A DNA stretch of 64,000 nucleotides from Escherichia coli (lineage in GTDB: Bacteria; Pseudomonadota; Gammaproteobacteria; Enterobacterales; Enterobacteriaceae): assembly GCF_003019035.1 (NCBI RefSeq), contig NZ_CP027447.1, one strand, 5' to 3'. The position numbers and the translations under genes were made by a program. Below are positions 1 through 47,169 of the stretch, piece after piece (the stretch's first letter is position 1; each line of letters opens with the position of its first letter). Below the pieces are notes generated by a model. The model searched no databases. It saw nothing but the letters and a program-made list of their open reading frames with translations, and had not been told where the DNA came from.

Positions 1-539
1 GTAATCGGAGACTCGGCCATTAAGCGCATCATCTGCGGCCAGTGATGCCAGAGAAAAAACCCCGTCACGCTGCCAACCAGGATGGTTTTCAAAATTGCTT
101 TAAGTAACTCCGCGCCAGTCTGAGCCGAGAACATCCGTTTAATGCCCGGTAGCGGGTTGAGTTTGGAAAACTTCGGCTGCAAGGATTTGCCGCTAAATAC
201 CAGCCCTCCCAGCATGACCGGAGAAATGAGCGCCACCAGTACCACGCCGCTAATCAGTGGCAGCAGCGCCAGCATGGCTTCTCTGATCAGCAGAATAATC
301 TGCCCGAGGATCAGATTCGGGTCATTGATAATACTGTGATCAAAATGCAGCCCAGCGGAGAGCATGCCCGACAATCGACGGGCCAGCGACACACCGCCAA
401 ACCAGATAACACTCACGCCCACTAACAAAATCAGCAGCGAGGTCAGTTCACGGGAACGCGGGATTTGCCCCTCTTCCCGCGCTTTTTCTAGTCGGTGAGG
501 TGTGGGGGCTTCTGTTTTGTCGTCGCTCTCGTCAGACAC
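1..539 (-). CDS. flhB: Flagellar export apparatus protein FlhB, N-terminal part (gene continues beyond window start)
   Basis: Reverse-strand translation from GTG at 539 reads VSDESDDKTEAPTPHRLEKAREEGQIPRSRELTSLL..., recognisable as FlhB N-terminus; not in ORF track because it runs off the window edge. Confidence 0.85.
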   Translation of the reverse strand, partial: MSDESDDKTEAPTPHRLEKAREEGQIPRSRELTSLLILLVGVSVIWFGGVSLARRLSGMLSAGLHFDHSIINDPNLILGQIILLIREAMLALLPLISGVVLVALISPVMLGGLVFSGKSLQPKFSKLNPLPGIKRMFSAQTGAELLKAILKTILVGSVTGFFLWHHWPQMMRLMAESPI

Positions 540-775
540 GTCGCCAATCCTGGAAAGAGTATTAAGCGTAAATGATGCCAGAGCGCAAAGCGTTCAATGG
601 TTTGAGTAAGGGGCAAAACAGGCGGGATTTAGGGCGTTTATGCAAAAAATAGGTTCAGTTGCAGAACGTTTTGCGAACCATTTTCCAGTTCTGAGATTTA
701 GCCATTTAGCCTATAGAATCGCCCACCGCCTCTCTGTTAGTTTGCTAATAATTAAATTATTACAAAGGCGATCAA

Positions 776-2284
776 ATGGAATGGCAACAATTGCTTAACT
801 GCAACCGTCGGAAAGATAATCTAAAAAAAACCAGCATAGAATTTTTACATCCCCTTGCTAGCGGAAGACAAGAGATCGAGCGGGATTACGACCGATTACT
901 TTTTGCTGCGCCAACTCGTCGGCTTGCGGATAAAACACAAGTTTTCCCGTTAGATCAAAATGACAGTATACGGACGAGGCTGACTCATTCTCACGAAGTA
1001 GCAAACTTTGCTCGCGGAATAGGAATGAGACTCGCTTTCGAGATGAAGGAACACATCTTTGGCGAAATACCCACGGGGATTGTCGTTGAACGCGACGTTC
1101 CTGCTCTGTTAGCAGCGATCGGACTGGCACACGATCTCGGTAATCCACCATTTGGGCATCAAGGTGAAGCAGCGATGCGCGCATGGTTTAATAAAAATCT
1201 TCCAGGCCTTCTTGATAAAGAAGTAAACAGCGAAATATATAACGACTTTCTGCAATTTGATGGAAACTCACAAACCCTGCGCCTGGTTACCAAATTACAA
1301 ATTATTAACGATAACTTTGGTCTGAATCTGACCTATGCCACGCTGGCTGCACTGATCAAATATCCCCGAGCTTCATATTCATCGGACAAACATTGGAAAA
1401 AGCACGGTTTTTTCTATTCTGAGCATGAGGTTGTCATGGATGTCTGGCAACAAACGGGCCTTGGCGTACCAGGTAATGATGCCGGTTGCCGCCACCCATT
1501 TACCTGGATAATGGAAGCTTGCGACGATATTGCCTACTCTGTGCTGGACGCAGAAGATACCATCAAGAAAGGATTTGCCTCATACCAGGATTTGCGTGAT
1601 TTTTTGATGTCACAATCCGAGCCGAACGATGTAATTCAACATGTTATTGAAGCTGTAGAGGCCAAAAATGACGCCTGGAAAGAGCAAAGAAATGCACTTT
1701 CACCGGCGGAAATTAATGAACTCAGTATGCAAATGTTCAGAGTTTATGCCACCAGTGCATTGATTAATGCCGTAGTAGAAGCCTTTCGCGAACAATTACC
1801 CACGCTGATGCAGCGTGACTGCCCGTTCAAAGATTTAATCTCGCAAAGCAAAGGTCACGCTCTCTGCACTGCCCTGAAAATGTTCGACCGAACACGAGGC
1901 TACTTTCATCGTTCAGTCTTGCAACTGGAACTTAGGGGATCTAATTACATTACTAACTTGATGGATATGCTCTGGATTGGCATCCATGGACACAAAACAA
2001 AGAAAGAACGAGACGGAGAACGCGAGTCCGCGTCTACAGATAACCTTTTTGTTTCTCGTGAAGAATACCTGTCGGATACTCCCTTTGGTCGCTATGCTTA
2101 CGGGACAATCTCTGAAAATTATCGCCGTGTGTTTGAAGATCCCGCCAATACACTCCCTATTCTTTATAAAGAAGCGCAGTTGCTTACCGACGCAATCTCA
2201 GGCATGACGGATAGTTATTTAATGCGCCTTCACGATGAGCTAAAATCACTGTATGAATGTGGTCTCAAACACCCAACAGCTTGA
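776..2284 (+). CDS. Dgt-family HD-domain deoxynucleoside triphosphate triphosphohydrolase homologue (dGTPase-like), accessory copy
   Basis: 502-aa ORF with AAGG RBS about 9 nt upstream; motifs TRLTHSHEV, LAHDLGNPPFGH, TWIMEACDDIAYSVLDAED and C-terminal ISGMTDSY align with E. coli Dgt motifs as I recall them; local GC about 35-42%. Confidence 0.8.
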   Translation: MEWQQLLNCNRRKDNLKKTSIEFLHPLASGRQEIERDYDRLLFAAPTRRLADKTQVFPLDQNDSIRTRLTHSHEVANFARGIGMRLAFEMKEHIFGEIPTGIVVERDVPALLAAIGLAHDLGNPPFGHQGEAAMRAWFNKNLPGLLDKEVNSEIYNDFLQFDGNSQTLRLVTKLQIINDNFGLNLTYATLAALIKYPRASYSSDKHWKKHGFFYSEHEVVMDVWQQTGLGVPGNDAGCRHPFTWIMEACDDIAYSVLDAEDTIKKGFASYQDLRDFLMSQSEPNDVIQHVIEAVEAKNDAWKEQRNALSPAEINELSMQMFRVYATSALINAVVEAFREQLPTLMQRDCPFKDLISQSKGHALCTALKMFDRTRGYFHRSVLQLELRGSNYITNLMDMLWIGIHGHKTKKERDGERESASTDNLFVSREEYLSDTPFGRYAYGTISENYRRVFEDPANTLPILYKEAQLLTDAISGMTDSYLMRLHDELKSLYECGLKHPTA

Positions 2285-3005
2285 ACAGCGTATCGCCGAT
2301 TTTTTTACGCTTAGTGATGAGCATAAGAAAGCCAGAGTATTACTTGATACTCTGGCCTGTTCCTGTCCGGCCTGGATTTTTGGCGGGATGGTGCGTGACT
2401 TAGGCTTGTTTGGCGTCGAGGGATTCTCTTCAGACCTTGATATCGTCATCGGTCGCTCCCGTGAGGAACTCTTCCGGACATTGGCTGAACTGCCCGTCAA
2501 ACAACTGCGTTTTAATAAGTTCGGTGGGATCCGTTTTCGTTATCACGACTTCGAATTTGATATCTGGAACCTCAATGAGACATGGGCATTTCGGGAAAAA
2601 CTTATATTTTGTGAGGATGAATCAAGTCTGTTAAACACTACGCTGATGAGTTGGGATGCCGTGCTCTATGATCTACGTAGTGAAAAAATTATCAGTAAAG
2701 ATAATTATTTGACCGACTTAAATCGCAGACATCTTGAACTTGTTCTTCATACTAACCCCAATCCAAGCGGTTCGGTAACGAAAATTTTACGCACTATTTT
2801 TACTAAGCAGGTAAAGAGTTTAGGTCCGGAACTCTGTCATTTCTTGCACCATGAACTGACGAAAAAACGTTATGAAGTTTGGCATCATTACGATGTACTG
2901 CACTACCAGTCATCGTCATTTTCTCGTTCACAATTTAATGCGTTGATAAATTTACTGGCGCAACAATCACGCTTCGCTGATCTAAAATTATCAAATTACA
3001 AATAA
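2253..3005 (+). CDS. Pol-beta superfamily nucleotidyltransferase-like protein (tRNA-NT/poly(A) polymerase head-like motif), unknown function
   Basis: 250-aa ORF overlapping the upstream gene by 32 nt; motif WIFGGMVRDLGLFGVEGFSSDLDIVIG resembles the GGxVRD...DxD head motif of CCA-adding enzymes and PcnB; the rest has no recognisable body/tail domain. Confidence 0.65.
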   Translation: MNVVSNTQQLEQRIADFFTLSDEHKKARVLLDTLACSCPAWIFGGMVRDLGLFGVEGFSSDLDIVIGRSREELFRTLAELPVKQLRFNKFGGIRFRYHDFEFDIWNLNETWAFREKLIFCEDESSLLNTTLMSWDAVLYDLRSEKIISKDNYLTDLNRRHLELVLHTNPNPSGSVTKILRTIFTKQVKSLGPELCHFLHHELTKKRYEVWHHYDVLHYQSSSFSRSQFNALINLLAQQSRFADLKLSNYK

Positions 3006-3049
3006 CCATCCTCCACATACTTCCTGAACGATACCCGCCCCCCTGCTAT

Positions 3050-3074
3050 CGGCCTGGCATCATCGCGCAGGCCG
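3050..3074. other. 7-bp inverted repeat hairpin (CGGCCTG-N11-CAGGCCG) between the cassette 3' end and the cheZ stop
   Basis: Perfect inverted repeat read in sequence; no flanking T-run on either strand, so not a canonical intrinsic terminator. Confidence 0.3.
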
Positions 3075-3092
3075 AAGTTAAGGCAATACAAA

Positions 3093-3737
3093 TCAAAATC
3101 CAAGACTATCCAACAAATCGTCCACCTGATCCTGACTGGCTACCACACCGGCTTTGCTGGTATCGACCTGAGGTCCATTAAGCAAACTCTGGTTTTCACG
3201 TTTTGGACGCGACTCCTGTTCCGGGATGTTTTCCAACAGCACCATCAGCAACTGACGTTCGATCTCCTGAATGACATCCATCATCCGCTTAATGACCTGC
3301 CCGGTGAGATCCTGAAAATCCTGCGCCATCATGATTTCCAGCAGTTGCGCGTTAGTAAAGCTGGTATGCACGGGGACATCTACCAGAAATTGCCGCGTAT
3401 CTGTTACCAGTTCTCGGGCGTCGGCAAGGTCGATCGGATCGGCAAACCAGTCATCCCAACGTTGGGTTAACGCTTTTGCTGATTTCTCCATTTGATCCTG
3501 ATGCGGTTGTGACGCCTCAACACTGTTCAGCGCCCGCTCCGCAGCCTGGGCGGTCATCTGCACAACATAGTACAAACGATCGCGCGCATCGGGGATGGCT
3601 TCCGCCGCTTCGGCAATGGCCTGATCCAGCCCCAGCTCCCGCAAACTGTCGCGCAGCATACGCGTCAGGCTGCCGATGCGCGCAATGATATCGCCAGCTG
3701 AATGCTCGTCAGCAGGTTTGATTGATGGTTGCATCAT
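3093..3737 (-). CDS. cheZ: Chemotaxis phosphatase CheZ
   Basis: Translation [24 protein letters not shown]... to ...DDLLDSLGF matches E. coli CheZ; start taken at MMQP inside the longer track ORF. Confidence 0.95.
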
Positions 3738-3747
3738 AGTCGCATCC

Positions 3748-5201
<1,454 letters not shown>

Positions 5202-46272: not shown

Positions 46273-46752
46273 ATGTTCACGATTAAAACAGATGATCTCA
46301 CCCATCCAGCAGTGCAAGCATTAGTGGCTTACCATATTTCCGGCATGCTGCAGCAGTCTCCCCCCGAAAGCAGTCATGCTTTAGATGTGCAAAAATTACG
46401 TAACCCGACAGTGACATTCTGGTCAGTATGGGAAGGCGAACAACTCGCAGGAATTGGTGCGCTGAAGTTGCTGGATGATAAACATGGCGAGCTGAAATCA
46501 ATGCGTACCGCGCCTAATTATTTACGTCGTGGTGTCGCCAGTCTGATTTTACGCCACATTTTGCAGGTCGCCCATGACAGATGCCTTCATCGCCTGAGCT
46601 TAGAAACGGGTACACAGGCTGGATTTACGGCCTGCCATCAACTTTATTTGAAGCATGGTTTCGTTGATTGCGAACCGTTTGCTGATTATCAACTTGATCC
46701 ACACAGTCGATTTTTGTCATTGACGCTATGCGAAAATAATGAATTGCCATGA
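46273..46752 (+). CDS. yedL: GNAT-family N-acetyltransferase YedL
   Basis: 159-aa ORF at the yedL position. Confidence 0.85.
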   Translation: MFTIKTDDLTHPAVQALVAYHISGMLQQSPPESSHALDVQKLRNPTVTFWSVWEGEQLAGIGALKLLDDKHGELKSMRTAPNYLRRGVASLILRHILQVAHDRCLHRLSLETGTQAGFTACHQLYLKHGFVDCEPFADYQLDPHSRFLSLTLCENNELP

Positions 46753-47169
46753 GCCAGACGCAGCACATTCTTGCATTCGACGAGCTGCGCCTTTATTTAT
46801 TATCAGCCGCAAATGTCTTGTCCTTAGACGCTCTTTCCACATGCGCCACAAGAAACCTCTATTCCAGTGACACAATTATGCCTGATTATTTCCCTAGCCC
46901 GGAATATGAATAAAAACATCAAATAAGATGAAATTATCAAAATATTAATGTTGCGTCTGTGGTCGTAACAACAACCGACCTGGTGATGCGTGTTAAAGGA
47001 GACACTCTGATGTTCAGGGGGGTTATCACGTATACAGATCGTGGATGGCAGAAAACTTTCAGAATCAGGTTTCCATTTTAAACCAGAAATTGAGTGAGTT
47101 TGCCCCATCAATGCCCCACGCTGTGAGTTTGGATGTCATTAAACAAGCACAATCAACACGTAACACAAC

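Follow-up and report, generated by a model that had tools for sequence, protein, structure and literature searches.

What is the role of a 250-residue nucleotidyltransferase (NTase) that is encoded, together with an HD-domain hydrolase, between the flagellar gene flhB and the chemotaxis gene cheZ of Escherichia coli? The question is raised by a stretch of 64,000 nucleotides (contig NZ_CP027447.1), called the window throughout, which is 100% identical to the E. coli chromosome of strain SCU-301. An earlier note, made from its letters alone, had recognized in the small protein the head motif of tRNA nucleotidyltransferases and poly(A) polymerases and had offered two functions for it, either synthesis of a nucleotide signal in a regulatory relationship with the neighboring hydrolase or modification of tRNA or RNA 3' ends as a toxin. 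As judged from homology and gene arrangement, it is very probable that the protein is CloB, the regulatory NTase of the phage defense system Clover, and that the overlapping upstream gene encodes the effector of the system, CloA. A published account of Clover exists (Yamaguchi et al., bioRxiv 2025; PMC12265719), and the window copy is a divergent member of it, belonging to an Enterobacteriaceae lineage that is fixed at the flhB–cheZ site.

The Clover system and the gene pair in the window

Clover systems were reported from Salmonella enterica SA20044414, E. coli H5 and Xanthomonas oryzae DXO-052. CloA is a dGTP triphosphohydrolase (dGTPase) without activity of its own; it is switched on specifically by dTTP, with a half-maximal effective concentration of about 15 µM, and dTTP rises in infection by T5-like phages (PMC12265719). 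CloB is an NTase making 5'-triphosphothymidyl-3'5'-thymidine (p3diT), which was identified via cryo-electron microscopy (cryo-EM) and liquid chromatography coupled to mass spectrometry; bound at the dimer interface of CloA, this dinucleotide counteracts activation with a half-maximal inhibitory concentration of about 7.6 µM, and the distant Xanthomonas CloB makes it likewise (PMC12265719). Defense against T5-like phages exceeds 10,000-fold. HD mutants lose defense and operons with a dead NTase are toxic, so that the HD enzyme is the toxic and the NTase the protective component (PMC12265719).

Both genes of the window were found where the earlier note had placed them. The NTase gene, an open reading frame (ORF) of 250 codons with an ATG start, occupies exactly 2253..3005 on the plus strand (RefSeq hypothetical protein WP_001103661.1), and the adjacent HD hydrolase gene at 776..2284 overlaps its start by 32 nt. 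An HD dNTPase gene followed on the same strand by an overlapping NTase gene is the two-gene layout of Clover. The likeness to Clover CloB extends from this position directly downstream of the CloA dGTPase gene to a catalytic triad (D61, D63 and D103), to homology over the full length (E = 1e-54) and to a partner CloA that retains the pockets for p3diT and dTTP. The overlap is likely to reflect translational coupling, and its conservation suggests that synthesis of the antidote would be coupled to synthesis of the effector.

Catalytic motif and predicted structure of CloB

The motif quoted in the earlier note, WIFGGMVRDLGLFGVEGFSSDLDIVIG, comprises residues 41–67 of the 250-residue protein, and this segment aligns with the GGxVRD...DxD motif of the class II tRNA nucleotidyltransferases from Thermotoga and Aquifex. 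The resemblance is no accident: across 146 homologues, down to approximately 25% identity, G45, R48, D61, D63, G92, D103, W105 and W111 do not vary, and a CloB profile retrieved from the PDB class II tRNA nucleotidyltransferases only, at motif A and with E-values from 1e-3 to 0.09. D61-L-D63 and F-D103-I also fit the CloB signature of Clover, which is the Pol-beta pattern [D/E]h[D/E]...h[D/E]h (PMC12265719). Pfam PolyA_pol was matched by 68 of the 146 family members at E ≤ 0.1. The window protein itself stayed below threshold both with PolyA_pol (E = 0.099, model positions 1–63 of 126) and with NCBIfam pcnB (TIGR01942; 12 bits vs. a cut-off of 305.65, E = 0.066), and it had no match in PADLOC, in PHROGs or in a single-sequence search of the PDB. 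As these direct searches gave no named family, sequence libraries alone would leave CloB "unknown". The His-rich stretch in the C-terminal half to which attention had been drawn is confined to the window allele and is not conserved even in close relatives.

An AlphaFold2 model built on the 146-sequence alignment reached a predicted local distance difference test score (pLDDT) of 96.2 and a predicted template modeling score (pTM) of 0.92. When this model was compared with the PDB using Foldseek, a check that the earlier note had proposed, the top 46 matches were all class II tRNA nucleotidyltransferases or PcnB. The superposition on class II enzymes covers 202 of the 250 residues, and much of the C-terminal half therefore corresponds to their helical neck domain. 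According to the model, CloB consists of the head and neck of a class II CCA-adding enzyme or PcnB, that is, of the fold of their catalytic core. The tRNA/RNA-binding body and tail domains are absent, CloB having 250 residues compared to 342–517 in the matched enzymes, with TM-scores normalized to the target of only 0.29–0.40. The protein had rightly been judged too short for a complete CCA-adding enzyme, although a neck is predicted to be present; the statement that its last 150 or so residues resemble nothing recognizable did not survive, since the modeled C-terminal half is mostly helical neck and no new fold. In such a class II active site, free dTTP presumably serves as the acceptor in lieu of a tRNA 3' end. 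The finding that CloB has its nearest structural kin in class II CCA-adding enzymes and PcnB, with only head and neck in common, is a modest addition to the preprint, in whose text it was not found.

This kinship revives the thought of an enzyme or toxin that modifies tRNA or RNA 3' ends, comparable to MenT toxins or to a truncated CCA-adding or poly(A)-adding enzyme. We regard this as extremely improbable. The protein is predicted to stop after the neck, before the body and tail, and sequence similarity to class II enzymes and PcnB (PF01743) is restricted to motif A and remains below threshold, as the PolyA_pol match over positions 1–63 and the 12 bits with pcnB illustrate. Furthermore, it is inactivation of the NTase that causes toxicity in the tested Clover systems (PMC12265719), and a CloA gene accompanies it without exception at the loci examined, which argues for a role directed at the partner. 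By homology, CloB would use two dTTP molecules for a dinucleotide signal rather than extend an RNA 3' end. Of the two functions offered in the earlier note, the signal synthase that regulates the HD hydrolase is the one demonstrated for the CloB family (PMC12265719); the toxin is not supported, the NTase being protective and devoid of a tRNA-binding body and tail.

Homology of CloA and conservation of its ligand pockets

CloA from the window matched the cryo-EM octamers of SeCloA (9p8s–9p8v, four PDB entries with eight chains each) with E = 3.4e-190 and is 66.5% identical to SeCloA in a global alignment. Matches to SpdGTPase from Shewanella, a stand-alone anti-phage dGTPase (9p8w, E = 2.8e-24; Tal et al. 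2022), and to the housekeeping Dgt of E. coli (4x9e, E = 1.2e-37) were far weaker. The numbering of the SeCloA structure, minus a two-residue tag, reproduces H117/D118/H126/E129 of the paper, and in the alignment the HD pair H119/D120, the HE dyad H128/E131 and the metal ligands H71/D250 of window CloA stand opposite H117/D118, H126/E129 and H69/D242 of SeCloA. The preprint prints the PDB codes as 8P9S–8P9V instead of the deposited 9P8S–9P8V; these are evidently transposed, because the adjacent entry 9P8W matches the SpdGTPase of the paper. It is also inconsistent in naming a CloB mutant both D71A/D73A and D61A/D63A, and a CloA mutant once H116A/H117A (PMC12265719).

The contact residues listed in PMC12265719 were then mapped onto window CloA, with the omission of Q377 because the deposited SeCloA sequence has E377 at this position. 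All 16 residues of the dGTP/active site and all nine of the dTTP pocket are identical, including Y452 of SeCloA, which is Y481 here. Nine of the ten residues in the p3diT pocket are identical as well, the sole difference being L27 in place of T25. Of the three switch-loop residues only one is identical; L174 is replaced by I177 and Q427 by D455.

The mechanism established in the systems from Salmonella and E. coli H5 may be transferred to the window pair by homology. From two molecules of dTTP, CloB would constitutively form p3diT, a linear dinucleotide, which would occupy an arginine-lined pocket of CloA at the dimer interface (R31, R36, R40 and R322 here) and raise the dTTP level required for activation; the dGTPase would be kept suppressed, and self-inflicted depletion of dGTP prevented. 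Once the nucleotide pool is remodeled by a T5-like phage, the risen dTTP would bind to the adjacent, mutually exclusive pocket at Y481 and displace the inhibition. The active site of CloA would now be completed, dGTP would be destroyed, and replication of phage DNA would be blocked.

Could the divergent lineage have kept a Clover-type regulator that makes another inhibitory nucleotide, differing in base, linkage or oligomer length? The low identity of 35–36% between window CloB and CloB of the tested type points in this direction, as do the exchange of T25 for L27 in the p3diT pocket, the two altered switch-loop residues and the published tree of CloB homologues, which is colored by adjacent effector and implies some diversity in the family (PMC12265719). 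On the other hand, the residues that read the two thymines (Q311, D37 and N75) are identical in window CloA, and so are the three arginines, R314 and F41, and the Xanthomonas enzyme produces p3diT in spite of its distant relationship (PMC12265719). It is therefore very unlikely that the product is a different one, and p3diT is retained as the predicted product of window CloB.

Another way for a small NTase to silence its neighbor is covalent. In type VII toxin-antitoxin systems of the HEPN-MNT kind, a small Pol-beta NTase likewise protects the cell from a toxic neighboring enzyme, and CloB might accordingly neutralize the HD enzyme by nucleotidylylation instead of a diffusible ligand. This is contradicted by the published evidence (PMC12265719) and by the fold ranking, and the window pair does not combine an NTase of the MNT fold with a HEPN RNase, which defines those systems. 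We consider a covalent mechanism very improbable, and inhibition of CloA by a dinucleotide ligand remains the preferred reading.

Two Clover lineages in E. coli

A second pair of this kind is present in E. coli LR-33 (locus L014:3910-6109; NZ_AP027523.1 81924-84123). It measures exactly 2,200 bp, encodes a CloA of 471 and a CloB of 276 residues, and is located in an integrase island at tRNA-Sec (selC) beside genes for a PfkB kinase, a QueC-like 7-cyano-7-deazaguanine synthase and a Dam-like methylase. Its CloA matches SeCloA with E = 2.9e-276, and E. coli H5, from which an operon of 2,200 bp had been cloned (PMC12265719), carries the operon with 100% identity (NZ_CP010169.1 1122857-1125056). 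CloB of the window is 35% identical to the L014 protein, which is the same as in H5, over its full length with E = 1e-54, far inside the BLAST threshold of E ≤ 0.005 that the authors of the paper applied for inclusion of CloB homologues (PMC12265719; their supplementary list holds about 650). The two CloA proteins share 60% identity.

That the window allele is itself the tested H5 system had been hinted at by a single figure legend, in which D61A/D63A corresponds to the numbering of window CloB. This was rejected: the operons differ in length (2,200 vs. 2,230 bp) and H5 carries the selC type at 100%. The window CloB lacks 26 residues at the N-terminus, which places its DxD motif at positions 61/63 as compared to 71/73. 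E. coli thus holds two Clover lineages, the tested one of the selC type and the commoner one at flhB–cheZ. They differ in location (flhB–cheZ vs. the selC integrase island) and in the length of CloA, 502 vs. 471 residues, the former containing an additional loop of some 20 residues. With 8 complete genomes carrying the selC-type operon and 106 carrying the flhB–cheZ islet, the latter lineage is approximately 13 times commoner in complete E. coli genomes. The existence of two lineages, with the tested one being the rarer, is a further modest addition that was not found in the text of the preprint.

Several points weigh against assigning the window pair to Clover. It is the other lineage (CloA of 471, CloB of 276 residues) to which the systems tested from E. 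coli H5 and Salmonella belong, and identity between the CloB proteins is only 35–36%. Window CloA carries substitutions in the switch loop (L174 to I, Q427 to D) and in the p3diT pocket (T25 to L), H263 at the octamer interface of SeCloA is Q271, and the extra segment of about 20 residues (406–431) lies just upstream of S446 and N448, which contact dTTP. PADLOC 2023, PHROGs and NCBIfam contain no CloB model and there is no solved CloB structure. Finally, no defense genes are found near the islet in the window, its flanks consisting of flagellar and chemotaxis genes. Since the window lineage differs from both tested ones, the activity of the window pair is a prediction drawn from sequence.

The same differences lead to the proposal that the flhB–cheZ lineage (CloA of 502, CloB of 250 residues) is a functionally distinct Clover subtype, which we consider possible, if rather doubtful. 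The CloA insertion of about 20 residues together with L174I, Q427D and H263Q could shift the activation threshold, the oligomeric state or the phage range. If the subtype were real, these properties could differ from those of the tested systems and the CloB product could differ subtly from p3diT. The remaining value of the locus lies in a corrected annotation and in a possible difference of the common E. coli lineage in activation threshold or phage range. The insertion itself comprises the HKTKKERDGERESASTDNLFVSREEYLS region (window 1991-2068, residues 406–431); in relatives, overall CloA length varies (471, 482, 492 and 502 residues).

Relatives and genetic environment

An exhaustive search yielded 1,029 cluster representatives of CloB at E ≤ 1e-3. 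The close family, with full-length members of 44–73% identity, is restricted to Enterobacteriaceae and was found in Escherichia, Enterobacter, Cronobacter, Pseudescherichia, Pseudenterobacter and Atlantibacter. Nine other loci were inspected (L004, L006, L008–L012, L014 and L003, in which cloA is split by an insertion sequence), and each has a gene for a CloB relative of 29–68% identity directly 3' of a CloA-like HD gene and overlapping it; overlaps of 10–47 nt are present in all related loci inspected. Four distant relatives (29–39% identity) from unrelated metagenomes share the arrangement, their genes directly following and overlapping an HD gene of 458–480 codons (one HD gene cut by the contig end; 41% identical to window CloA). 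The pairing across these relatives identifies the NTase and the HD enzyme as a conserved unit. An Enterobacter pair occupies the same flhB–cheZ site. In Atlantibacter hermannii (L006), the pair is found among a type I restriction-modification system, DarTG and a PfkB/QueC/Dam cluster, and the genes of this cluster also neighbor the pair in the LR-33 island.

Disrupted copies exist. An IS3-family element splits cloA and leaves cloB intact in Enterobacter (L003:3365-6038, CP056155.1), IS1 is present inside the matched stretch of 3.8 kb (window 1-3800, islet included) in E. coli 1532MA and 1532WA, and Shigella flexneri (P0010, P0203–P0215) retains only CloB fragments. Loss would be tolerated if the toxic effector went first. 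Should the islet as a whole then be regarded as a decaying, non-functional remnant? The disrupted copies speak for this. In the window, however, both ORFs are intact, and we count the conservation of every catalytic and ligand residue against decay; the genomes that carry the islet share it at 99% identity or more, and toxicity would be expected from an intact CloA next to a dead CloB. Decay of the window copy is thus exceedingly unlikely, and an intact Clover pair is the reading with which we proceed.

CloB-like genes of 24–35% identity also occur on conjugative Phaeobacter plasmids (e.g., Phaeobacter piscinae NZ_CP010683.1 23973-24641) and on megaplasmids of Bacillus thuringiensis/cereus. 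Not a single one was matched among 50,697 phage records, and on these grounds the idea of a phage-encoded CloB serving as an anti-defense mimic was rejected.

Comparison with other systems and consequences for annotation

The logic of Clover, in which the product of a constitutive NTase holds an effector off and defense sets in when this hold is overcome, is shared with Hailong, where HalB makes oligodeoxyadenylate, and with Panoptes/MISS, where mCpol makes 2'3'-c-di-AMP (PMC12265719). Enzyme families, products and effectors are different, and Clover is triggered by dTTP, a competing metabolite that activates, rather than by disappearance of the inhibitory signal. SpdGTPase and E. coli Dgt resemble CloA in the fold of the HD dGTPase and in catalytic residues, but neither has an NTase partner, and SpdGTPase is constitutively active and hexameric.

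The practical value of the assignment lies in annotation. At present, the two genes appear as "dgt" and "hypothetical protein" in RefSeq, CloB as "Poly A polymerase head domain-containing protein" in UniRef, and the pair as a lone dGTPase in PADLOC 2023, whose dGTPase model matches CloA with 9e-71. CloA passes only the subfamily model TIGR01353 of NCBIfam and stays below every equivalog cut-off (NF003429, 270 vs. 405; NF002205, 357 vs. 439). As RefSeq uses the name "dgt" despite these scores, automated annotation conflates the Clover effector with the housekeeping enzyme, and the HD gene should not be taken for a housekeeping dGTPase. Identification as Clover would assign a function at the level of mechanism to an islet present in about 2% of E. 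coli genomes and in Enterobacter, Cronobacter and related genera.

The accessory islet at flhB–cheZ

Homology to the empty-site genome of E. coli LR-31 (L002) stops at window position 643 and restarts at 3081 in BLAST comparisons. At the empty site, flhB and cheZ are separated by an 87-bp stretch resembling repetitive extragenic palindromic (REP) elements (L002:842-928), and the islet stands in its place. As this palindromic stretch is missing in islet carriers, the islet replaces it and is not a simple insertion. The full islet stretch was found in 106 of 5,426 complete E. coli genomes; the remainder have the empty site. Its GC content is 44.0% compared to 50.4% for the window, the rest of which is ordinary core genome with flagellar, chemotaxis, ara and ots genes. 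The coordinates of all features are compiled in Table 1.

Table 1. Features of the Clover islet and its genes in the window.
Feature	Position	Strand	Basis
Clover islet, accessory, 2,437 bp, flanked by flhB and cheZ	644..3080		BLAST against empty-site genome L002
Candidate sigma-70-like promoter upstream of cloA, CTGAGA-17-TAGAAT, weak	691..719	+	Consensus scan, 9/12 matches
cloA, 502-residue HD-domain dGTP triphosphohydrolase, putative system effector; RefSeq "dgt"	776..2284	+	PDB, PADLOC and NCBIfam matches
cloA/cloB overlap, 32 nt	2253..2284	+	cloA stop TGA 2282-2284, cloB ATG 2253
cloB, 250-residue Pol-beta-superfamily NTase, predicted p3diT synthase	2253..3005	+	Homology
NTase motif A, residues 41–67: GG-x-x-RD and first two catalytic carboxylates D61/D63	2373..2453	+	Homologue alignment
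Codon of D103, third catalytic carboxylate (F-D-I, h[D/E]h element)	2559..2561	+	Invariant in 146 homologues

Scans of the region for promoters and terminators gave nothing beyond chance. The sigma-70-like site is listed as a candidate only, because such sites in this region are not more frequent than expected from shuffled sequence. Between the cloB stop and the convergent end of cheZ, just inside the right islet boundary, lies an inverted repeat (CGGCCTG at 3050-3056 and CAGGCCG at 3068-3074), which has no T-run and was not called by the terminator scan. Elsewhere in the window, at 46273-46753, lies yedL, which encodes a GNAT acetyltransferase and which the SCU-301 record, identical to the window, annotates as a pseudogene with a frameshift.

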